DNA from: Bacteroidota bacterium
Lineage (GTDB): Bacteria; Bacteroidota; Bacteroidia; 2-12-FULL-35-15
Direction of reading: 5' to 3'
Assembly (NCBI GenBank): GCA_023251835.1
Contig: JAHEXZ010000015.1
Location: 25,568-89,567 of the forward strand
DNA length: 64,000 nucleotides
Shown here: in pieces, positions 15,310 through 24,371 of the stretch
Position numbering within the stretch: the stretch's first letter is position 1
How the letters are laid out: each line of letters begins with the position of its first letter
Position numbers and translations under genes: made by a program
The notes under the pieces: generated by a model
Databases searched by the model: none
What the model was told of the DNA's origin: nothing
Seen by the model: the letters and a program-made list of their open reading frames with translations, nothing else

Positions 15310-16008
15310 TTATCTTGCATCAGCATACCATTTTGCCAACAAGTGAGGCGAAACACCTGTCAGGTATAATTTTTTTATCAGAATCCATTGCATCCTCGTT
15401 TTGAAGAATCCTGTCTCGATGTGCCTTCGAGCTGAAACAATTAGTTTTGGAAATTTTATCTGCTTTACTTTGAACTGTTTTTTCATTCTGATAGAAAAAT
15501 CATAATCCTCCATGATTGGAATTTCTTTGAAGCCGTCTAATATTTCAAAAACATCTTTCTTTACAAATATTCCATTGTCGCCATAAAAAATACATCTGTC
15601 GGATTGTTCACGATTCCTGAAAAACCTAAAATTCAAAATTATTCCAAGCTGTTTTATTTTTTTGTTGTGCGAGTCAAACTCATTGGCGAACCCGCCACCG
15701 TCAAACCCATCTTTCAATTGATTGCATATAGCGGTAAGCGCTCCATCGGGTACAAACATATCTGCATGAACAAAAAAAAGAATGCTGCCTTTTGCGTGCT
15801 TGGCTCCCTCGTTCAACTGTTTCGCTTTTCCTTTTTCGCAATGAATCACTTTAGCGTATTTGCCTGCTATTTCAATTGTGGTATCTGTACTTCCCCCGTC
15901 AGCAACAATGATTTCTTTTTGTGATTTACAGGAAAGTTTATTCAGTTGAAGAAGTGTATTCTCAATAGAAGACGATTCATTGTATGTGGGGATGATTATG
16001 GAAATCAT
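15310..16008 (-). CDS. Family 2 glycosyltransferase, paralogue of the rSAM/selenodomain-associated transferase 2
   Basis: Contains ISIIIPTYNE, VADGGSTDTT, FVHADM, YGDNGIFV, IMEDYDF and SARR. The motif order matches ORF 21686..22375. Confidence 0.75.
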   Translation of the reverse strand: MISIIIPTYNESSSIENTLLQLNKLSCKSQKEIIVADGGSTDTTIEIAGKYAKVIHCEKGKAKQLNEGAKHAKGSILFFVHADMFVPDGALTAICNQLKDGFDGGGFANEFDSHNKKIKQLGIILNFRFFRNREQSDRCIFYGDNGIFVKKDVFEILDGFKEIPIMEDYDFSIRMKKQFKVKQIKFPKLIVSARRHIETGFFKTRMQWILIKKLYLTGVSPHLLAKWYADAR

Positions 16009-17390
16009 TCTTTAGTGCGTAAAAATCGTGTGAATGCCTTTTTTACAATTTCGGAATAAGTGGGGTAAGCAAAAATTGTATCGGCAAAATTTTCAGCGGG
16101 AATTTTATTGTTAATCGCTACAGTTAAGATTTGTATCCATTCTCCCGCATGCGCTCCAATTGCATCAGCGCCAATGACAAGATTTTTAGAATTAAAAATT
16201 ACTTTTAAAAACCCGATTGTATTTCTATCGGTAATAAAACGATCAATGTTTGCGTCCACTTTGAAAACTGAAATTTCATTTCCAAATTTTTCTCGCGCTT
16301 CTTTTTCGGATAAACCTACATGTGCTATTTCAGGTTCAGTAAAAATTGCCCAAGGCAGTGCGCTTAAATCATTTTCTTTTTTATTCCCATTCAGGATATT
16401 TTCAATTACACTATTTGCCTGATAGGACGCGGTGTGAGTGAATTTAGGATAAGTTGCAACATCTCCACAGGCATAAATATGGGGAGTGGATGTCTGCAAA
16501 TAGGAATTTGTTTTGATTCCATTTTCTGAAAATTCCACACCCGATTTTTCCAAATCAAGATCGAAAACATTTGGATGCCTACCAGCAGCAAGAAAAATAC
16601 TTTTGGCAGAAATTTCTTTTTCTTTTCCGTCTTGAAAATATGAAACAAAAGTTGTTGCTATTTCTTTTCTAACACCTTTCAACTCGGCTGAACAAATAAT
16701 TTTAATTTCTTCTTTTTTAAAAATGTCAATGATGATTTTGGCTGCATCATCGTCAACTGGTTTTAAAATTCTCGGATTACGGTCAAGGATGGTAACCTTG
16801 CTTCCGAAACGAGCAAGCGCCTGTCCGAGTTCAGCAGAGATTACTCCCCCGCCAATGAAAATAATTGATTCAGGAAGTTCTCGTATTGACCAGAAATTTT
16901 CATTGTGAAGAAACTCAACTTCTTTTCCCACCGAGACATTTACTTTTTGCGGTGATGAACCAGTGCAAATTACAGCGTATTTAAAATTCAAAACTTCATC
17001 ACCGATGGCAATATTATTTTTATCTAAAAATTTTGCTCCGCTGCTGTTCACATACACATCTATTCCCTGTTTCTCAAAAATGATAGGCGTTTCGTGTTTG
17101 TAAACTTCCTGAACAATGCTGTCAACCTGCTCCATAACAGTTGCAAAATTCAGTTTGCCAGAAACCTGTATTCCACCTAATCCGTAATTTTCTTTCAGAT
17201 GTTTTGTCACCTTATATATTTTTGCACTATGCAGAAACGCTTTGCTCGGAATACAACCGTAATGTGTACACTCTCCGCCAATTTTATTTTTTTCAAGCAA
17301 GGCAACTTTCAATCCTTTTCGGTTGGCAGTAGTAGCCGCAACCAATCCACCCGAACCTGCGCCAATCACAACTAAATCATACTTTTTCAT
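16005..17390 (-). CDS. Class I pyridine nucleotide-disulfide oxidoreductase (MerA/Lpd family) with Tyr replacing the dyad His
   Basis: Contains VVIGAGSGG and the redox-active GGECTHYGCIPSK. A second Rossmann motif is IFIGGGVISAE. The C-terminus reads FAYPTYSE where Lpd/GR have HPTxSE. Confidence 0.8.
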   Translation of the reverse strand: MKKYDLVVIGAGSGGLVAATTANRKGLKVALLEKNKIGGECTHYGCIPSKAFLHSAKIYKVTKHLKENYGLGGIQVSGKLNFATVMEQVDSIVQEVYKHETPIIFEKQGIDVYVNSSGAKFLDKNNIAIGDEVLNFKYAVICTGSSPQKVNVSVGKEVEFLHNENFWSIRELPESIIFIGGGVISAELGQALARFGSKVTILDRNPRILKPVDDDAAKIIIDIFKKEEIKIICSAELKGVRKEIATTFVSYFQDGKEKEISAKSIFLAAGRHPNVFDLDLEKSGVEFSENGIKTNSYLQTSTPHIYACGDVATYPKFTHTASYQANSVIENILNGNKKENDLSALPWAIFTEPEIAHVGLSEKEAREKFGNEISVFKVDANIDRFITDRNTIGFLKVIFNSKNLVIGADAIGAHAGEWIQILTVAINNKIPAENFADTIFAYPTYSEIVKKAFTRFLRTKE

Positions 17391-17515: not shown

Positions 17516-17899
17516 TCAATGTATGCCATATAATAAAAGTTTTTGTTTTACAAGATTTATGAGCTCAGTAGTGGAAGAACTGTAATTGATTTCATCTGCT
17601 GTAATGATTTGCAAAGTTTTTAAACCATTTTTCCAAAACACCGCAGGAAATTTTTTCCTCTTGATGTTATAAGCATTTTCAAATTCATCTCTGTGAAAGA
17701 ACAGCGATTGTATTTTGAATGAAGAAATGAACTCTTTCCATTCTTTCTTCTCAGTAAAATTTCCGTATGACAGTTTGCATAAATTACAGTCATAAGTTTT
17801 CGGAGAAAGTATTTTGTGGGTGAAGTCAACGAGCGAATTATAGAATCCTTCATCAGCATTATAGACGAATATTAAAGCGTGTTCGGTATCATTTTTCAT
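17516..17899 (-). CDS. Small CxxC protein, possible thioredoxin/glutaredoxin-like fold
   Basis: 127 aa with a CNLC motif and FPAVFW (a cis-Pro-like element). Its start overlaps the stop of the upstream small ORF by 4 nt. Confidence 0.45.
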   Translation of the reverse strand: MKNDTEHALIFVYNADEGFYNSLVDFTHKILSPKTYDCNLCKLSYGNFTEKKEWKEFISSFKIQSLFFHRDEFENAYNIKRKKFPAVFWKNGLKTLQIITADEINYSSSTTELINLVKQKLLLYGIH

Positions 17900-18114: not shown

Positions 18115-19086
18115 TTAACAACAACCACCGCCATCATAAAACCAAGTTGATTCAGAAATAAAAATATCCTTTCTTCCGAGTGATTTCAAGGCATTGGCTG
18201 TTTTATCGCAGACAGAAAGTGGCTGATTGAAATTCAGAATATGACGTTTATTATCATCATAAAATCCTTTCGTTCCGAAATAAATCGCTGTTTTTCCAGT
18301 GAACACACAGGGTCCGTCATCAGGCATCGGGTCTTTAACAGCGCACACTTCCACACTTTCAATAAAAATATTTTTTAGAGTATCATAATTTTCTGGGTCA
18401 AGAATTCTGTAAGGGCGTTTCGCTCTTACTTCAACAGTTCCGAAACCTACATCGGTAATCATTTTTATGTATTCCTTCAACGGCATCGCTCCGCTTAAAC
18501 ACATTGCTCTCAATACCTCGTCATTCTTGAGAGAATCAGAAATATTATCTTCACAAACAGGGTCGGATAAAACTAATCTGCCATTCGGTTTAAGCACACG
18601 ATACATTTCCTTCAATGCTTTTTTCAAATCTTCTTGTTTGAAAATATTGAATAAACAATTTTGAGCGGCAACATCTATACTTTCATTTTCAATGGGCAGA
18701 TTCAATGCATCCCCCTTTCTTACATCAATAAATTCCGATTTAAACCAATTGTTTTGCTTCATTGCATCAAGGAAGTTACTTTTACAAGCATGAAGCATTT
18801 CATCTACTACATCTATTCCAATCACTCCATTTTTCTTCCTGCTGAAATAGGAGAATTGCAAAAGTTCCATTCCTCCTCCAACTCCAACATAGAGTATGGT
18901 TGGTTCATTCACTAAATCTCGCGGATGGACCGTGCTTCCACAGCCGTAATTCATTTCCAACATTTTTTTTGGAATTTTCAATCCCGGTAATTGCCATACT
19001 GGTGTCGTGGTGCAGCACAATCCTACATTGGGCGTTTCAGCCGCTTCTTTATAAACATTTTTTGCTGTTTCAAGATAGGTTTCCAT
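18115..19086 (-). CDS. arsM: ArsM-like SAM-dependent (metalloid) methyltransferase
   Basis: The N-terminus has an LCC pair and YGCGST. The SAM motif is VGVGGGMEL. QNCLFNIF, VLKPNGRLVLSD and RAMCLSGAM parallel the conserved ArsM Cys-containing blocks. The protein ends in GGGCC. Confidence 0.65.
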   Translation of the reverse strand: METYLETAKNVYKEAAETPNVGLCCTTTPVWQLPGLKIPKKMLEMNYGCGSTVHPRDLVNEPTILYVGVGGGMELLQFSYFSRKKNGVIGIDVVDEMLHACKSNFLDAMKQNNWFKSEFIDVRKGDALNLPIENESIDVAAQNCLFNIFKQEDLKKALKEMYRVLKPNGRLVLSDPVCEDNISDSLKNDEVLRAMCLSGAMPLKEYIKMITDVGFGTVEVRAKRPYRILDPENYDTLKNIFIESVEVCAVKDPMPDDGPCVFTGKTAIYFGTKGFYDDNKRHILNFNQPLSVCDKTANALKSLGRKDIFISESTWFYDGGGCC

Positions 19087-19088
19087 AT

Positions 19089-20198
19089 TTAAAAATTAAT
19101 TTTAGTTAGAAGTAAATAAATTAATGCACTTATAATTGCTGCAACAGGAAGTGTGAGTAGCCACGAAAGAAAAATTTCTGAAATAACTTTTGTGTTTGCC
19201 TTTTTTGTTATTGTCCCGATTCCAAATAACGAACCCACCGAAACGTGTGTGGTAGAAACCGGAAGCCCATTTACACTTGCTGTTGAAACAAGAAGCGCAG
19301 TTACAAGATTTGCTGTGAATCCTTGTCCGTGATTCATGGTAGTAATTTTTTTACTCATTGTTTCTCCCACTTTTTTTGCATTGAGTAAACCGCCAATGAC
19401 AATAGCAACAGCAACGGCTCCTGCTCCGATATGCACGTCAAGTGCAGTGATTAGAAGCAAAAGTCCAACCATCTTCGGTGTATCATTCACCCCCCTTGCA
19501 AAACTTACTGCGCCTGCGCTGATGAAATGAAAAGCATCTAAAATTTTCTGCGCTGAAATTCCAACGATAGTTCCATTGTATTGCTCTACACATTGATTAA
19601 CAGTCCCTATTTTTATTGCTATTGAATTTTCTGCAATCGCAGTTTTATCTCCAAAAGCGTAAACTTTTTGTTCCTGCACCACACAAGCACAGGATTCTTT
19701 TGTGATGCCTGATTTTTTTCTTGCTGAAGCGAAAACAAAATACAAGAACATACTTGCGACAGCAGCAATGAGTGGACTTAAAATGAGAGGGAGAAAAAAT
19801 GTTCCTCCGAGTTTTCCGAAATTAAATTGTGAACCAACTGCAATCAATCCGGCTCCTGTAAGCGCGCCTACCAATCCATGTGTAGTGGAAATAGGCATTC
19901 CTATTCTTGTAGCGAGAAAGACGGTGACCGCTGCACCGAGAGCAACTGCAATGGCAAACGAGGGAGAAGCAATCAGTGAATCGGGAACTAACCCTTTTCC
20001 TGAAAAATTTTTTACGAGAGATGAAGCAAGAAAAATAGAAGCCACCGAGCCGAGCAAAGTGGTAATAGTTGCCCAATTGATCGCCTTTTTGTAATCTGTT
20101 GTCCCGCTGCCGAATAAAGTGGCAACTCCTTTGAAGTTATCGTTTGCACCGTTGGAATAAGCGAGAAAGATAACAGCTGTGAAAATTAAAAATGGCAT
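19089..20198 (-). CDS. Inorganic phosphate transporter, PiT/PHO4 family
   Basis: Contains NGANDNFKGVATLFG and a second repeat, RGVNDTPKMVG. The protein is polytopic. I prefer the internal ATG at 20198, because the 23 extra N-terminal codons of the track ORF read through the trx remnant. Confidence 0.85.
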   Translation of the reverse strand: MPFLIFTAVIFLAYSNGANDNFKGVATLFGSGTTDYKKAINWATITTLLGSVASIFLASSLVKNFSGKGLVPDSLIASPSFAIAVALGAAVTVFLATRIGMPISTTHGLVGALTGAGLIAVGSQFNFGKLGGTFFLPLILSPLIAAVASMFLYFVFASARKKSGITKESCACVVQEQKVYAFGDKTAIAENSIAIKIGTVNQCVEQYNGTIVGISAQKILDAFHFISAGAVSFARGVNDTPKMVGLLLLITALDVHIGAGAVAVAIVIGGLLNAKKVGETMSKKITTMNHGQGFTANLVTALLVSTASVNGLPVSTTHVSVGSLFGIGTITKKANTKVISEIFLSWLLTLPVAAIISALIYLLLTKINF

Positions 20199-20229
20199 CG
20201 CATTATTTTTTAAGCATAAATTTGTGTAT

Positions 20230-20435
20230 TCAATACTGGCTGGAAATTTCCGGGTTGCCATCCACATTCAATTTCCCGATAACCACTTTCCCTTCGCATT
20301 CCTTTGAAAGTTCATCTACAATGGGACCAACCATTTGGCAAGAACCACACCATTCTGCCTAGAAATCTACCTATACCGGTTTTCTGATTTCATTACCACT
20401 TCATTGAAGTTGGTATCTGTTAATTCTGTTGACAT
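20230..20435 (-). pseudogene. trxA: Thioredoxin pseudogene (frameshift, two in-frame TAG codons, 3' truncation)
   Basis: Reads MSTELTDTNFNEVVMKSE, then a 1-nt shift, then [48 protein letters not shown]. The WCGxC active site is recognisable, and the last ~35 aa of a normal Trx are missing. Confidence 0.8.
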
Positions 20436-20499
20436 AGTTTTAATTTTTTTGATCACTAATTTTTCTTTTACAATGCTAAATTATACGAAAGGAACTAAT

Positions 20500-20521
20500 T
20501 TTTTGTGGAATTAACAAAAAT
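20500..20521. promoter_or_regulatory. Palindromic motif TTTTTGTGGAATTAACAAAAAT, copy 2
   Basis: Has perfect TTTTTGT-N7-ACAAAAA symmetry. It lies 65-86 nt upstream of the trx remnant start. Confidence 0.45.
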
Positions 20522-20584
20522 ATTTTGATAACTAATGGCGAGTTCTTATTTTTGAGATAAAAAAATGGGATAATTGTATTATCA

Positions 20585-20830
20585 AACAGCCGGAGAAATA
20601 TTTTCTAACCAGGCAAGAGACACTTGCAATCATCCTTGCTCATCGTCAGCAGAAGGATAAGAGTATAGCAGATAGACTAAAACAATCTTATTTTTAATAA
20701 GGGATTTAGTTATGTAGAAGTATCGGAGTTATTATTATTGGACGAGAATACCATACGTAACACATACGAAATTTTTGTTCGTGAAGGAAAAATTTTTCAA
20801 AACCTAAGTTGGTTTGGTATAGTTTACTGC
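20585..20830 (+). pseudogene. Degenerate helix-turn-helix remnant (IS630-like transposase N-terminus?)
   Basis: Two broken frames read ETLAIILAHRQQKDKSIADRLKQS and KGFSYVEVSELLLLDENTIRNTYEIFVREG. No intact ORF remains. Confidence 0.3.
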
Positions 20831-20872
20831 ACAATGAAAGAGTGTCAGATGAATGACATAGAGTTACATTTC

Positions 20873-21676
20873 CTAAATCGCATCCGCAAAAATCTTTGAT
20901 AATTTTTTATCAGCTTTTCCTGCAACTTCGATTATTTCCTCAATGCTTATGGGTTTTAGATTATCGGGGTCGCACTCATCTGTTATAACTGACACTGCCG
21001 CACATTGCAGTCCCAAATGGTTTGCAGCAATCACTTCGGGCACAGTGCTCATTCCTACCATATCTACCCCTATATTTTTCAGCATCCGATATTCAGCAGG
21101 GGTTTCCAACATGGGGCCCGCCACAGCTGCATAGACACCTTTTTTCAAAATCACTTTTTCAGATAAACCACATTTTTTCAATTGCTGTTGAAGTTCCAAT
21201 GAATAGGGCTGACTCATGTCGGGGAATCCCGGACCGAATGAATCTTCGTTTTTTCCGATAAGAGGATTCCCTGGAAGAAGATTGATATGGTCGTCAATCA
21301 AAACCAAATCTCCCTTTTTAAAATCTAAATTGATTCCACCTGCCGCGTTGGAAAGAAAAAGATTTTTCACGCCAAGCATTTTCATAACACGAATGGGAAA
21401 AACGATTTGCTGAAAAGAATATCCTTCGTAGAAATGAAATCTTCCCTGCATCGATATCACTTTCTTTTTTCCTATCTCACCATAAATTAAATTCCCCTTA
21501 TGAAATTCCACAGTTGAAACTGGGAAGTGGGGGATTTCAGAATAAGGAATAGTTGAAATAATTTTTAAATGAGTGATGAATTGGTTAAGCCCTGTGCCGA
21601 GAACAATTCCATAATCAGCATTCCCCATCCCCTTGCCTCTGAGAAAATTTTCTGTTTCTTTGATTTTTTCGTACAT
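20873..21676 (-). CDS. Purine nucleoside phosphorylase, PunA/MTAP (trimeric PNP) fold
   Basis: Contains GIVLGTGL, GRFHFYEGY, SNAAGGIN, VAGPMLETPAEYRML and GMSTVPEV. 267 aa. Confidence 0.85.
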   Translation of the reverse strand: MYEKIKETENFLRGKGMGNADYGIVLGTGLNQFITHLKIISTIPYSEIPHFPVSTVEFHKGNLIYGEIGKKKVISMQGRFHFYEGYSFQQIVFPIRVMKMLGVKNLFLSNAAGGINLDFKKGDLVLIDDHINLLPGNPLIGKNEDSFGPGFPDMSQPYSLELQQQLKKCGLSEKVILKKGVYAAVAGPMLETPAEYRMLKNIGVDMVGMSTVPEVIAANHLGLQCAAVSVITDECDPDNLKPISIEEIIEVAGKADKKLSKIFADAI

Positions 21677-21685
21677 ACAATTCTC

Positions 21686-22375
21686 TTATTGAATGTGATT
21701 CTGATAATACCTTACAATTTCCTCCTGTGAAAAACCGAGATAGTAAAGAATATTTATCACTGTATAATTCCATTGCAGGCGGAGCATCCCGTTCTTACGG
21801 TATCTTCTTGCTGATGTAACAACATAATCCGGTATAACGGAAAATTTTCCCTGTTTTGTAATTCTTCTCACAATATCATTATCTTCCATTATTTCCAGAT
21901 TAATGTCGAAGCCGTTTATTTTTCCAAACAAATCACGCTTCGCAAATAATGACTGGTCTCCGAAGCGACATAGATTATTATTGAACCTTGTGAACCAACT
22001 GAAAAATCTGAAGAAAGGATGTTTGCTGTCAAATTTCATTCTGAAACAACCGGCATCATTACCGTCTTTTATGGATTGAAGAATCCGCTCATCAAATTTT
22101 TTGGGTGGAATAGTATCCGCATGAAGAAAATAAAAAATGTCTCCCGTAGCAAGATTTGCTCCTGTATTCATTTGAAGTGCCCTGCCTCTTCGCTCTGTTA
22201 GAAAAACTTTTGCACCAGCCCGTTTCGCAATTTCAGCGGTGTTATCTCCGCTACAAGCATCCACAACAATAATTTCCTGAATATTTCTCTCGGAAGAATT
22301 ATTTTTCAAGGTATGAACAAGTTTTTCAATTCTCTCAGATTCGTGGCAAGTCGGTATGATAATGCTGATTTTCAT
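21686..22375 (-). CDS. Family 2 glycosyltransferase, TIGR04283-like (transferase 2, rSAM/selenodomain-associated)
   Basis: Contains ISIIIPTCHE, GRALQMNTGA, FLHADT, FGDQSLF, IMEDNDI and SARRYRKNG. Confidence 0.75.
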   Translation of the reverse strand: MKISIIIPTCHESERIEKLVHTLKNNSSERNIQEIIVVDACSGDNTAEIAKRAGAKVFLTERRGRALQMNTGANLATGDIFYFLHADTIPPKKFDERILQSIKDGNDAGCFRMKFDSKHPFFRFFSWFTRFNNNLCRFGDQSLFAKRDLFGKINGFDINLEIMEDNDIVRRITKQGKFSVIPDYVVTSARRYRKNGMLRLQWNYTVINILYYLGFSQEEIVRYYQNHIQ

Positions 22376-22989
22376 TTTTTTATTTGAATTTTTCCTAATT
22401 CACCGATGTTATCTTCTGTATCAATATCAGATAATGCAGGGAGCAAGTGATATTTCAGTTGTAATTTTTTAAGAATGTTAATACTGTCAAGCAAAACATT
22501 TTCCGTGCTCCAGGGAATATTTTCAAATAATTCTTTGTGGAGCGATTTCATTCCAAGAAGATAATATCCTCCGTCTATCGCTGGACCAATTACCACATCA
22601 TTATTATCGAGTGTTTCAAATGCTTTTTGAAGCATTTCTGTTTTCAATTCATGGCAATCTGTACCTATTATGAGAACCTTTTCATATTTATTTTGAAATT
22701 CAAAAGCAAAAGCATTTTTCATTCGCTCTCCTAAATCGCTTCCGTCTTGTACATATTTTTGATAAAAATCCTTGTCCCACATATCATTTTTGTCAATAAA
22801 ATCAGAATAGAAAATTGCTTTGTCGCAATTTTTTAATTGTGCGACAATATTTCCGGTATAGTGAAGAAGCATCTTATAAATTTGAAGTGCCTTCTCGTTT
22901 CCAATGCTTTTTGCAAGACGGGTTTTAACTTTCCCTTTGACAGGGTTTTTCATAAAAACCATAAGCAAGTATTTGTTTTTTTCTTTCAT
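22372..22989 (-). CDS. DUF2064 / TIGR04282-like (transferase 1, rSAM/selenodomain-associated; CofC/MobA-like nucleotidyltransferase fold)
   Basis: Contains VFMKNPVKGKVKTRLA, QDGSDLGERM, IIGTDCHEL, GPAIDGGYYLLGM, IPWSTENV and LSDIDTEDN. Confidence 0.75.
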   Translation of the reverse strand: MKEKNKYLLMVFMKNPVKGKVKTRLAKSIGNEKALQIYKMLLHYTGNIVAQLKNCDKAIFYSDFIDKNDMWDKDFYQKYVQDGSDLGERMKNAFAFEFQNKYEKVLIIGTDCHELKTEMLQKAFETLDNNDVVIGPAIDGGYYLLGMKSLHKELFENIPWSTENVLLDSINILKKLQLKYHLLPALSDIDTEDNIGELGKIQIKK

Positions 22990-22992
22990 CTT

Positions 22993-24039
22993 TTATTTTG
23001 TAATTGCTCCCTGACAACTTGAACCTGCCCCGGCAGTACATCCGAAACAATGCTGATTAACGATAATATTTCTTTCAGAAAGATTTTTGGTATTGAATTC
23101 GCTGATATGCTGAGGCGCATTTTTCTGAACTTTTAGTTCAAGCATCTGGTTAAAATCACAGTCGTATAAATATCCATCCCAACTGACTGAAATCGTATTT
23201 CTGCACATCACGCCTTGTGCGGCTGTTGCATTAAAAGCATTCACAAGCGTCTCCATATATTTTTCGTATTTCCCGAGCATGAGCAAGTAATCTAAAAACC
23301 TGCTGATAGGAAGATTGTTTATTGTATAAAGGTTATTAAAAGCGATTCCAAATTTTTCTCCAAGTTCATGTTTATAATCTGAGTGAAGTTTTTCCTGCGA
23401 ACCGGCTAACGAAGCTCCGATAGGATTAAAAACAAGATGTAACTCCAATCCTGTTTCTTCTTTTCCATAGCCAATTTTATTCAACATTTTTAACGATTCA
23501 ATCGAATGATTAAAAACTCCTTCTCCTCTTTGCTTATCTGTATTTTCTTTTGTGTAACATGGAAGAGAAGAAATCACAATTACTTTATGCTTTTTAAAAA
23601 ATTCAGGATACATTTTGAATTTTTTATTTGAAACAAGAATTGTGAGATTGCTTCGCACTATAATTTTTTTCCCGAGTTTGAAAATTTCCTCAACAAACCA
23701 TTGAAATCTTGGATTCATTTCAGGTGCGCCACCAGTTAAATCAATAGTATTCACCGAAGATTTCTTAATCGCTTCTAAACACAACTGCATTGTTTCGCGT
23801 GTCATAATTTCTTTTCGGTCAGGTCCTGCATCCACATGGCAATGCGCGCAGGTTTGATTGCACATTTTTCCAAGATTGATTTGCAGAATATCAAGAGAAA
23901 TTGGTTTTAAAGGATAAAGACCGATGTCTTTCAATTTTTCCGAAAAGGCAGGGACTAAAGCTTTGCTATCCTCAAGAATTGAAATTTGGTTCTCTGCAAC
24001 TGAGATTTTGTTGCCGCTTGATTTTAATGACTTTAACAT
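22993..24039 (-). CDS. arsS: Radical SAM/Cys-rich-domain protein, ArsS-like (TIGR04167 family)
   Basis: Contains CNQTCAHCHVDAGP (CxxxCxxC) and a C-terminal HCFGCTAGAGSSCQG Cys cluster. The track ORF starts at a TTG (24066), but the first ATG is at 24039. Confidence 0.75.
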   Translation of the reverse strand: MLKSLKSSGNKISVAENQISILEDSKALVPAFSEKLKDIGLYPLKPISLDILQINLGKMCNQTCAHCHVDAGPDRKEIMTRETMQLCLEAIKKSSVNTIDLTGGAPEMNPRFQWFVEEIFKLGKKIIVRSNLTILVSNKKFKMYPEFFKKHKVIVISSLPCYTKENTDKQRGEGVFNHSIESLKMLNKIGYGKEETGLELHLVFNPIGASLAGSQEKLHSDYKHELGEKFGIAFNNLYTINNLPISRFLDYLLMLGKYEKYMETLVNAFNATAAQGVMCRNTISVSWDGYLYDCDFNQMLELKVQKNAPQHISEFNTKNLSERNIIVNQHCFGCTAGAGSSCQGAITK

Positions 24040-24130
24040 AGTGTTGTTTTTATTTTCATAGTACAAAGTAATCTATTAGCAATGTATAGAAATGTCATTT
24101 TACGCGACAAACAAACTTTCGGATAGTTGT

Positions 24131-24363
24131 GAATAGAAATAATTCTTTTATACATTGTGTATTTTTGCTATGTAAGTGTGTGTGGCAGCAAAAATATTTT
24201 TTAGGTTCCAAACAGGAAAATATATTGTTGATCTTTTATGAACAAAAAGAATTTTTATTCACGAAATTTATATTATTTGGGTGTAAGTTTTTGAAAATCA
24301 ATTAATTGATTTTTTTTGTTTTTCGAAGAAAACAATTGCTGCAGGAGGGATTTTTTAATTATT
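24131..24363. repeat. Direct repeat copy B (233 bp)
   Basis: 226/233 identical to 14837-15069. It carries a duplicate ATG plus 8 codons and a duplicate -7 box, now lying upstream of arsS. Confidence 0.9.
24189..24196 (-). promoter_or_regulatory. Duplicated -7 box TATTTTTG, positioned to drive the arsS-side operon
   Basis: Same motif as 14895-14902, within repeat B. Confidence 0.35.
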
Positions 24364-24371
24364 ACAGTTTA

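Follow-up and report, generated by a model that had tools for sequence, protein, structure and literature searches.

Which enzymes remove adenine from the arsenic nucleoside and link the riboside to aglycones of the glycerol type is a decades-old question of arsenosugar biosynthesis, and it is raised again by three genes found directly downstream of arsS in a genome assembly of a Bacteroidota bacterium (contig JAHEXZ010000015.1, positions 25,568 to 89,567; this stretch of 64,000 nucleotides is referred to as the window). Arsenosugars are the main arsenic species of seaweeds and of many seafoods, and the proposal of the Edmonds-Francesconi pathway for their synthesis dates from the 1980s. The enzymes assigned so far cover the initial committed step, in which ArsM and then ArsS lead to an arsenic nucleoside (PMC8552651, PMC13598754); arsS is co-transcribed with arsM in Synechocystis (bioRxiv 10.1101/2022.09.23.509062). 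The product of ArsS from dimethylarsenite is 5'-deoxy-5'-dimethylarsinoyl-adenosine (DDMAA) (PMC13598754). Our full-text literature search returned no publication that deals with the later steps beyond ArsS, with DUF2064, or with a purine nucleoside phosphorylase (PNP) or other phosphorylase in arsenosugar synthesis. The three genes of the window encode a DUF2064 protein, a family 2 glycosyltransferase (GT2) and a PNP. We find that the PNP is a regular member of the DUF2064/GT2 module in the arsS clusters of Bacteroidota, and the trio very probably belongs to the arsS pathway.

The four genes lie on the minus strand in the order arsS, DUF2064, GT2, PNP, which differs from the order of the reactions proposed below. 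The arsS gene occupies positions 22993-24039; its longest open reading frame begins with a TTG at 24066 and encodes 357 amino acids, while the ATG at 24039 gives 348 amino acids, as in its relatives and in the public gene call. The DUF2064 gene (22372-22989, 205 amino acids) follows the arsS stop codon after 3 nt and overlaps the GT2 gene (21686-22375, 229 amino acids) by 4 nt, and a spacer of 9 nt separates the latter from the PNP gene (20873-21676, 267 amino acids). These coordinates reproduce the tight packing on which the original prediction had built, with spacings of -4, +3 and +9 nt. The public gene call places the start of DUF2064 27 nt further in, which extends the spacer after arsS to 30 nt. 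Scans for promoters and terminators returned nothing exceeding shuffled expectation.

All four proteins match their families far above chance. ArsS exceeds the cut-off of the TIGR04167 equivalog model (451.5 bits against 300), contains the Pfam domains Radical_SAM and DUF3641, the latter at its C-terminus, and carries the CxxxCxxC cysteines that are invariant in alignment A1; it is predicted to be an enzyme of the radical S-adenosylmethionine (SAM) type, adenosylating dimethylarsenite. The DUF2064 protein scores 117.9 bits with Pfam DUF2064 and 220.2 bits with TIGR04282 (cut-off 134), and its gene lies between arsS and a TIGR04283 gene. The GT2 matches TIGR04283 with 241.8 bits (cut-off 182) and Glycos_transf_2 (PF00535) with 84 bits, and is an ordinary small GT2, a family of inverting enzymes. 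The third protein matches PNP_UDP_1 (PF01048; E = 1.2e-50) and the generic PNP model NF006054 (338.7 bits, cut-off 218), barely passes TIGR01700 (PNPH; 301.5 bits, cut-off 293.35), and falls far below the cut-off of the methylthioadenosine phosphorylase (MTAP) model TIGR01694 (91.5 bits against 274.85). Its sequence assigns it to the trimeric PNPs and, within their PunA/PNP-I branch, to a subclade with the motif TDECDP.

The association of these genes extends well beyond the window. A scan starting from a diverse ArsS alignment, with one genome per species, yielded 80 loci, almost all from Bacteroidota, with a few from Ignavibacteriota, Balneolota and Verrucomicrobiota; the closest ArsS relative, at 77% identity, comes from a Saprospiraceae metagenome-assembled genome, which makes an origin of the window in this family probable. 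Linkage was counted within 10 kb in the 59 arsS loci of other genomes that have at least 5 kb of sequence downstream. DUF2064 is found in 39 of the 59 and a PNP of the window type in 27, against an expectation of about 0.5% of loci for an unlinked gene within approximately 10 kb in a 4-Mb genome. DUF2064 is likewise encoded in every one of the 27 PNP-bearing loci, at a distance from the PNP of no more than 300 nt in 25 of them. The pairing persists across three gene orders: arsS-DUF2064-GT2-PNP in Saprospiraceae-like loci, arsS-(arsM)-PNP-DUF2064-u127-GT2 in Chitinophagaceae-like loci, where PNP and DUF2064 overlap by 4 nt, and arsS-DUF2064-PNP-arsM in Flavobacteriaceae-like loci. Two Winogradskyella genomes (L069 and L082) maintain an intact DUF2064-PNP pair 9 kb away from arsS. 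Cultivable hosts of such clusters include Flavisolibacter nicotianae (L004), Polaribacter porphyrae (L079) and Winogradskyella thalassocola (L082).

Sampling from the side of the phosphorylase gives a consistent picture. Six close homologues of the PNP (67-84% identity), whose context was unknown when they were chosen, all proved to lie in arsS clusters, and several of them overlap DUF2064 by 4 nt; three of the six had been selected solely for lying on long contigs. A metagenome scan returned 80 PNP loci at 46-68% identity, 31 of them with at least 4 kb on each side. In this long-flank set eight PNPs are linked to DUF2064 or arsS, and all eight carry the motif TD(E)C(D/N)P; linkage was absent in eight PNPs of the 'CxPD' type, four classical enzymes with F200 and H257, and four others. 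Neighbour-joining analysis places the linked PNPs in what is essentially a single clade, for which TDECDP(D/E/K)NL.P(V/I).I..II is the hallmark motif, and within its Flavobacteriaceae-like subclade all 15 classifiable sequences of the PNP-first set are linked. Sampling from DUF2064 consisted of a single homologue, in the complete genome CP073749.1, where DUF2064, GT2 and PNP form an operon with the gene order of the window, and arsS is missing from the surrounding 10 kb. The original prediction would have been refuted had the PNP failed to co-occur with arsS elsewhere; the 27 of 59 loci and the six of six homologues establish that it does co-occur, and all three samplings agree.

The two genes also appear to have been lost together. 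In locus L005, the closest relative, DUF2064 is split over three frames by two frameshifts (L005:6170-7830), and of the PNP only residues 151-263 are left, since the gene has lost its first 150 codons and acquired a stop at the codon of the catalytic Glu201. Six neighbours in the same cluster—arsS, GT2, PHO4, arsM, the reductase and a second GT2—are full length. No DUF2064-PNP fusion was found among the best 120 homologues of DUF2064.

The active site of the PNP gives an indication of its substrate. Residues were read from alignment A2 to human PNP. The human residues S33, R84, H86, Y88, E201, M219 and S220 are kept in the window PNP, except that S33 is replaced by Thr, and further substitutions are N243D, F200L and H257I. 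His257 of human PNP contacts the 5'-OH of the nucleoside. Asn243 sets the specificity for 6-oxopurines, and the N243D substitution in human PNP raises the kcat for adenosine approximately 5000-fold (PMC6128611). With Asp at position 243 and Ile at position 257, the window PNP does not have the residues of an inosine/guanosine-specific enzyme; adenine nucleosides are its predicted substrates, and a 5' group other than hydroxyl should be tolerated. We considered Asp243 as a marker of arsS-linked PNPs and rejected it: Asp occupies this position in nearly all bacterial relatives sampled, classical F200/H257 enzymes included.

Phosphorolysis of such a nucleoside has precedents. In the FlA/FlB system of Streptomyces cattleya a pathway phosphorylase turns a 5'-substituted 5'-deoxyadenosine into a 5-substituted 5-deoxyribose 1-phosphate, as in the route considered here, and the chlorinase SalL with the phosphorylase SalT of salinosporamide biosynthesis is a second such example. 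FlB and SalT are MTAP-type enzymes, whereas that of the window is of the PunA/PNP-I branch. The fluorinase and salinosporamide pathways go on to isomerise and cleave the sugar phosphate; nucleotide activation and transfer would be specific to the route proposed here. FlB selectively phosphorolyses SAM-derived 5'-fluoro-5'-deoxyadenosine in the fluorometabolite pathway (PMC8694150), which makes it a precedent for the first step. In MtnP/MTAP salvage and the 5'-deoxyadenosine shunt, too, an adenine nucleoside without a 5'-OH is phosphorolysed, and MTAP and the window PNP both recognise the base through an Asp position and have a 5' pocket that is hydrophobic. By sequence, however, the window PNP is not an MTAP, and its partners are a nucleotidyltransferase-like protein and a GT2, where those of MTAP are an isomerase and an aldolase.

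The same pocket raises the alternative that the trio serves to clear 5'-deoxyadenosine or methylthioadenosine, which arise as inhibitory by-products in radical SAM and SAM chemistry, with the PNP producing 5-deoxyribose 1-phosphate that is converted onward. Asp243 and a hydrophobic residue in place of His257 would suit 5'-deoxy- and 5'-thioadenosines equally well, TIGR04282 has carried the older name 'rSAM/selenodomain-associated transferase', and the operon of CP073749.1 demonstrates that the trio can sit away from arsS. Yet the productive ArsS reaction moves the adenosyl group onto arsenic and releases no 5'-deoxyadenosine (PMC13598754), known disposal routes do not combine a nucleotidyltransferase with a glycosyltransferase, and the linkage of the module is specific to arsS, the window's second radical SAM gene having no part in it. 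We therefore consider disposal of by-products very unlikely.

The DUF2064 protein looks nucleotidyltransferase-like rather than glycosyltransferase-like when judged by its modelled fold and its motifs. Its best structural counterpart is PDB 3CGX (E = 6e-30). Foldseek with the AlphaFold2 (AF2) model (predicted local distance difference test, pLDDT, of 93) retrieved, after 3CGX, CofC, FbiD, 3-phosphoglycerate guanylyltransferase, IspD, glucose-1-phosphate cytidylyltransferase, GlmU and KdsB, and the first glycosyltransferase appeared only at rank 29. TM-scores are 0.65-0.74 for the matches to CofC/FbiD and 3-phosphoglycerate guanylyltransferase (F420 biosynthesis) and to sugar-1-phosphate nucleotidyltransferases. 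Across 74 homologues the motifs K..P..G.VKTR, Q.G..LGER, G.D(C), GP..DGGYY and a C-terminal D.DT are invariant, a pattern that we take to be the signature of CofC/MobA-type nucleotidyltransferases; those shared with CofC/FbiD-type enzymes are K..G.(V)K(T/S)R(L) at the N-terminus and D-x-D-T at the C-terminus. A match to Pfam CofC (36.2 bits, cut-off 22), the Foldseek neighbours and the K..P..G.VKTR and D-x-D-T motifs thus bear out the CofC/MobA-like fold that had been predicted for this protein. DUF2064 is nevertheless a family separate from CofC, scoring 26.8 bits with the CofC equivalog model TIGR03552 against a cut-off of 105.

What a nucleotidyltransferase of this kind would activate is less apparent from its relatives. 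The nearest characterised folds are guanylyltransferases of 2-phospho-L-lactate, phosphoenolpyruvate and 3-phosphoglycerate (2I5E, 6BWG/6BWH, 7P97), and these and the score above the Pfam CofC cut-off invite the alternative that what DUF2064 activates is not a sugar but the aglycone or a different phosphorylated C3 compound (glycerol phosphate, phosphoglycerate and phospho-lactate being examples). The aglycones of arsenosugars are C3 glycerol derivatives (PMC10456119). A nucleoside diphosphate (NDP)-C3 unit could serve, for instance, the phosphodiester of the 'phosphate' arsenosugar or arsenosugar phospholipids, with the GT2 and the PNP acting outside a linear route. This alternative leaves unexplained the tight pairing of DUF2064 with the PNP, whose special product is a sugar 1-phosphate and whose gene frequently overlaps that of DUF2064 at the stop and start codons. 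It equally fails to explain a fusion of DUF2064 with GT2, an enzyme that needs an activated sugar donor: in a distant lineage, L090:2400-3791 encodes a GT2-DUF2064 fusion of 463 amino acids. The low score with the CofC equivalog also speaks against it, and we regard activation of a C3 compound as unlikely.

In the route that we favour, the PNP would use phosphate to convert DDMAA to adenine and 5-deoxy-5-dimethylarsinoyl-alpha-D-ribose 1-phosphate, the CofC/FbiD-like DUF2064 protein would use a nucleoside triphosphate to turn this sugar 1-phosphate into an NDP-alpha-sugar, and the inverting GT2 would move the arsenoribosyl group to a glycerol-type or lipid acceptor, giving a beta-riboside. Enzymes of the GT2 family invert configuration, and the natural arsenosugars are beta-ribosides; the route would thus yield the naturally found anomer. 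This order of steps is proposed because the only distinctive product of the phosphorylase is a sugar 1-phosphate, because the most constant neighbour of the PNP is a nucleotidyltransferase-like protein that is itself fused to a GT2 elsewhere, and because the net stereochemistry agrees with that of natural arsenosugars. That the module is conserved and tied to arsS is established, as are each protein's fold and family. For the full route, from phosphorolysis through the NDP-sugar to inverting transfer, in which substrates and step order are deduced, we consider the case evenly balanced. That the trio makes and uses an arsenic nucleotide sugar, NDP-5-deoxy-5-dimethylarsinoyl-ribofuranose, which would be a type of donor new to biology, is a more tentative reading, possible if somewhat doubtful.

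Several observations weigh against this route. We know of no NDP-ribofuranose donors of this kind. A review from 2025 lists only cyanobacteria as bacterial producers of arsenosugars, with no Bacteroidota (PMC12159101). Among characterised proteins, those nearest to DUF2064 transfer adenylate or guanylate to C3 phospho-acids and not to sugar 1-phosphates. About half of the arsS neighbourhoods are without a PNP, and half of the 'TD.CDP'-type PNPs with long flanks (7 of 14) have no arsS or DUF2064 nearby at the 38% identity cut-off used for homologues; one of these seven, in L128, adjoins a DUF2064-like gene of 36% identity to that of the window, below the cut-off. Unlinked PNPs (for example, PDB 4LNA and 4M1E) likewise have Asp243, Leu200 and, at position 257, a hydrophobic residue, and the window PNP may double as a housekeeping enzyme, since it passes the generic PNP equivalog model. 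A Pfam scan of 20 multidomain ArsS homologues revealed fusions with ArsM in both orders, a flavin reductase, CMD (P0157) and a VTT/DedA membrane domain, with no PNP, DUF2064 or GT2 among the partners; the fusions with ArsM, flavin reductase and VTT were seen in P0134, P0142, P0144, P0156, P0192, P0195, P0270, P0139 and P0250. Four distant representatives of ArsS were looked up, of which two have no informative neighbours and two have DUF2064 and GT2 but no PNP; neither these look-ups nor the ArsS scan gave a confirmed locus from cyanobacteria, the group of the proven producers Synechocystis PCC 6803 and Nostoc PCC 7120. The clusters so reached, L088/L089 and L090, are three in number and lie outside Bacteroidota; they encode a GT2, DUF2064 and a reductase and have neither PNP nor arsM; as both are missing there, the ArsS-family enzymes of these clusters may use a substrate other than dimethylarsenite. 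The GT2 proteins of L088/L089 are 632-664 amino acids long (L088:11108-13006) and carry an extra N-terminal region with a faint match to the MptA_B membrane glycosyltransferases. The originally predicted route thus stands as regards the co-occurrence of PNP and arsS, the nucleotidyltransferase-like DUF2064 and the beta stereochemistry, and is weakened by the absence of the PNP from distant arsS clusters.

Some of these points are also what would be expected if the PNP were an ordinary purine salvage enzyme merely located in the cluster, recycling, for example, adenine or adenosine from heavy SAM use, with adenine removed from DDMAA by a different activity, for instance a nucleosidase of the MtnN type. 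The match to NF006054, the narrow pass of TIGR01700, active-site substitutions shared with unlinked PNPs and the arsS loci without a nearby PNP all fit this alternative, and no second PNP was seen within the 64-kb window. It is difficult to reconcile, however, with the near-universal adjacency of PNP and DUF2064 across three gene orders, translational coupling included, with a DUF2064-GT2-PNP operon that stands alone in CP073749.1, and with the joint decay of DUF2064 and PNP to pseudogenes in L005. The linkage of all classifiable Flavobacteriaceae-like PNPs would likewise be unexpected of a housekeeping gene, which genomes should carry whether or not they have the pathway. Purine salvage as the role of this PNP accordingly appears improbable, and we continue to place it within the arsS pathway.

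The operon-like array runs on downstream of the PNP and ends at 15310; genes past both ends of the cluster are unrelated. All of the following genes lie on the minus strand. A thioredoxin pseudogene (20233-20435) was recognised from translations and a tblastn comparison with the intact thioredoxin of L002, an 84%-related locus that encodes a protein of 107 amino acids at the equivalent position. The remnant has a frameshift near 20382, lacks its C-terminal third and is interrupted by two TAG codons in frame, where thioredoxin has Leu and Trp (KPV*VDF*AEWCGSC). Approximately 440 nt of seemingly non-coding sequence (20436-20872) separate this remnant from the stop codon of the PNP, against 76 nt in L002; the plus strand of this sequence contains short stop-bounded frames without proper starts, which may be remnants of an inserted gene. 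A PHO4/PiT-family transporter of phosphate, possibly of arsenate, follows at 19089-20198 (Pfam PHO4, 211 bits). Its longest open reading frame (19089-20267, 392 amino acids) begins within the thioredoxin remnant, and Met24 at 20198 is the likely start, giving 369 amino acids, because the orthologues in L002 and L003 have 368-369. An arsenosugar-type ArsM is encoded at 18115-19086 (NF038099, AsSugarArsM; 559 bits, cut-off 400). A flavin adenine dinucleotide (FAD)-dependent pyridine nucleotide-disulfide oxidoreductase resembling MerA and lipoamide dehydrogenase lies at 16005-17390 (Pfam Pyr_redox_2, 207 bits, and Pyr_redox_dim) and recurs in arsS clusters, the distant L088 and L090 included.

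The presence of a phosphate transporter, a lipoamide-dehydrogenase-like reductase and a thioredoxin (intact in L002, decayed to a pseudogene in the window) in one cluster with the PNP suggests a further alternative, in which the phosphorylase serves as an arsenate reductase by arsenolysis. PHO4 would import arsenate, ribose 1-arsenate arising from it and a nucleoside would be reduced by thiols to supply arsenite to ArsM, and thioredoxin and the disulfide reductase would regenerate the thiol. Mammalian PNP with dithiols reduces arsenate in vitro, according to a passage of PMC12608789 that cites Gregus and Nemeti 2002 and Radabaugh 2002, although the in vivo relevance is described as doubtful even for mammals (PMC12608789). 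Arsenolysis offers no explanation for the pairing of the PNP with DUF2064 and GT2, and PHO4 occurs in only 3 of 50 arsS loci, against 21 of 50 for the PNP. Such a role is in our view extremely unlikely, and the pathway role of the PNP next to DUF2064 and GT2 is preferred.

Two further genes complete the array. A conserved protein of 127 amino acids with an invariant CNLC (CxxC) is encoded at 17516-17899 and matches neither Pfam nor NCBIfam models; its homologues recur in arsS clusters (L002, L004, L018, L053 and L091), and its gene lies between DUF2064 and GT2 in Chitinophagaceae-like loci. Alignment A3 shows the invariant motifs FVYNA, HK..SP.TY.CNLC and F.H.DE. The family is small, with 59 homologues, and those with source names are all from Bacteroidota; some NCBI records call the protein a 'GTPase', and a fold search gave thioredoxin-like matches only, weak and non-significant. 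The last gene of the array (15310-16008) encodes a second TIGR04283 GT2 (196.5 bits, cut-off 182), overlaps the reductase gene by 4 nt and is a paralogue of the first GT2, with 38% identity. Other arsS clusters contain genes that the window does not. A CMD/AhpD-like protein of 111 amino acids adjoins arsS in 49 of 50 related loci (range L005-L084); the window lacks it (24067-24371, beside arsS), as do L002 and L003, the loci closest to it. A membrane enzyme of the fatty-acid-hydroxylase family (PF04116) ends the Chitinophagaceae-like arsS clusters (L004, L171, L173 and L175, for example), at times alongside a flavin mononucleotide (FMN) reductase or a HAD hydrolase, and is found in 13 of 50 arsS loci. 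Its recurrence hints that the end product may be lipid-linked.

A part of this association had been recorded before. The window arsS, DUF2064 and GT2 pass the curated cut-offs of TIGR04167, TIGR04282 and TIGR04283 in the expected adjacency. NCBIfam names both TIGR04282 and TIGR04283 "arsenosugar biosynthesis glycosyltransferase", and JGI keeps the older "rSAM/selenodomain-associated transferase"; the link of DUF2064 and GT2 to arsS, less new than the original prediction supposed, is therefore already present as annotation. The curated neighbourhood models and names do not cover the PNP, which is the regular fourth member in Bacteroidota here, and its membership is new. The database names imply two glycosyltransferases, whereas the TIGR04282 member of the window resembles a nucleotidyltransferase, and because both its fold neighbours and its motifs fit the latter, the label "glycosyltransferase" is probably wrong in kind. 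What we add is the PNP as a regular member of the module, the re-reading of TIGR04282 as a nucleotidyltransferase, and the chemically coherent, testable route that results. The route follows a known pathway logic, from a SAM-derived nucleoside through a pathway phosphorylase to a sugar 1-phosphate.

If the proposed roles are true, the name of TIGR04282 needs to be changed from glycosyltransferase to nucleotidyltransferase, and the arsenosugar pathway gains a phosphorylase. The trio is widespread in marine and soil Bacteroidota, including Flavobacteriaceae, Chitinophagaceae and Saprospiraceae; a literature search on Bacteroidetes and arsenosugars found nothing relevant. Its distribution points to synthesis of arsenosugars, or of lipids related to them, by common heterotrophic Bacteroidota, in which case these abundant organisms would be possible sources of organoarsenicals in the marine and soil cycling of arsenic. 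Should the reading of an arsenic nucleotide sugar prove true, heterotrophic bacteria, in addition to algae and cyanobacteria, would be substantial producers of arsenosugars or arsenosugar lipids.

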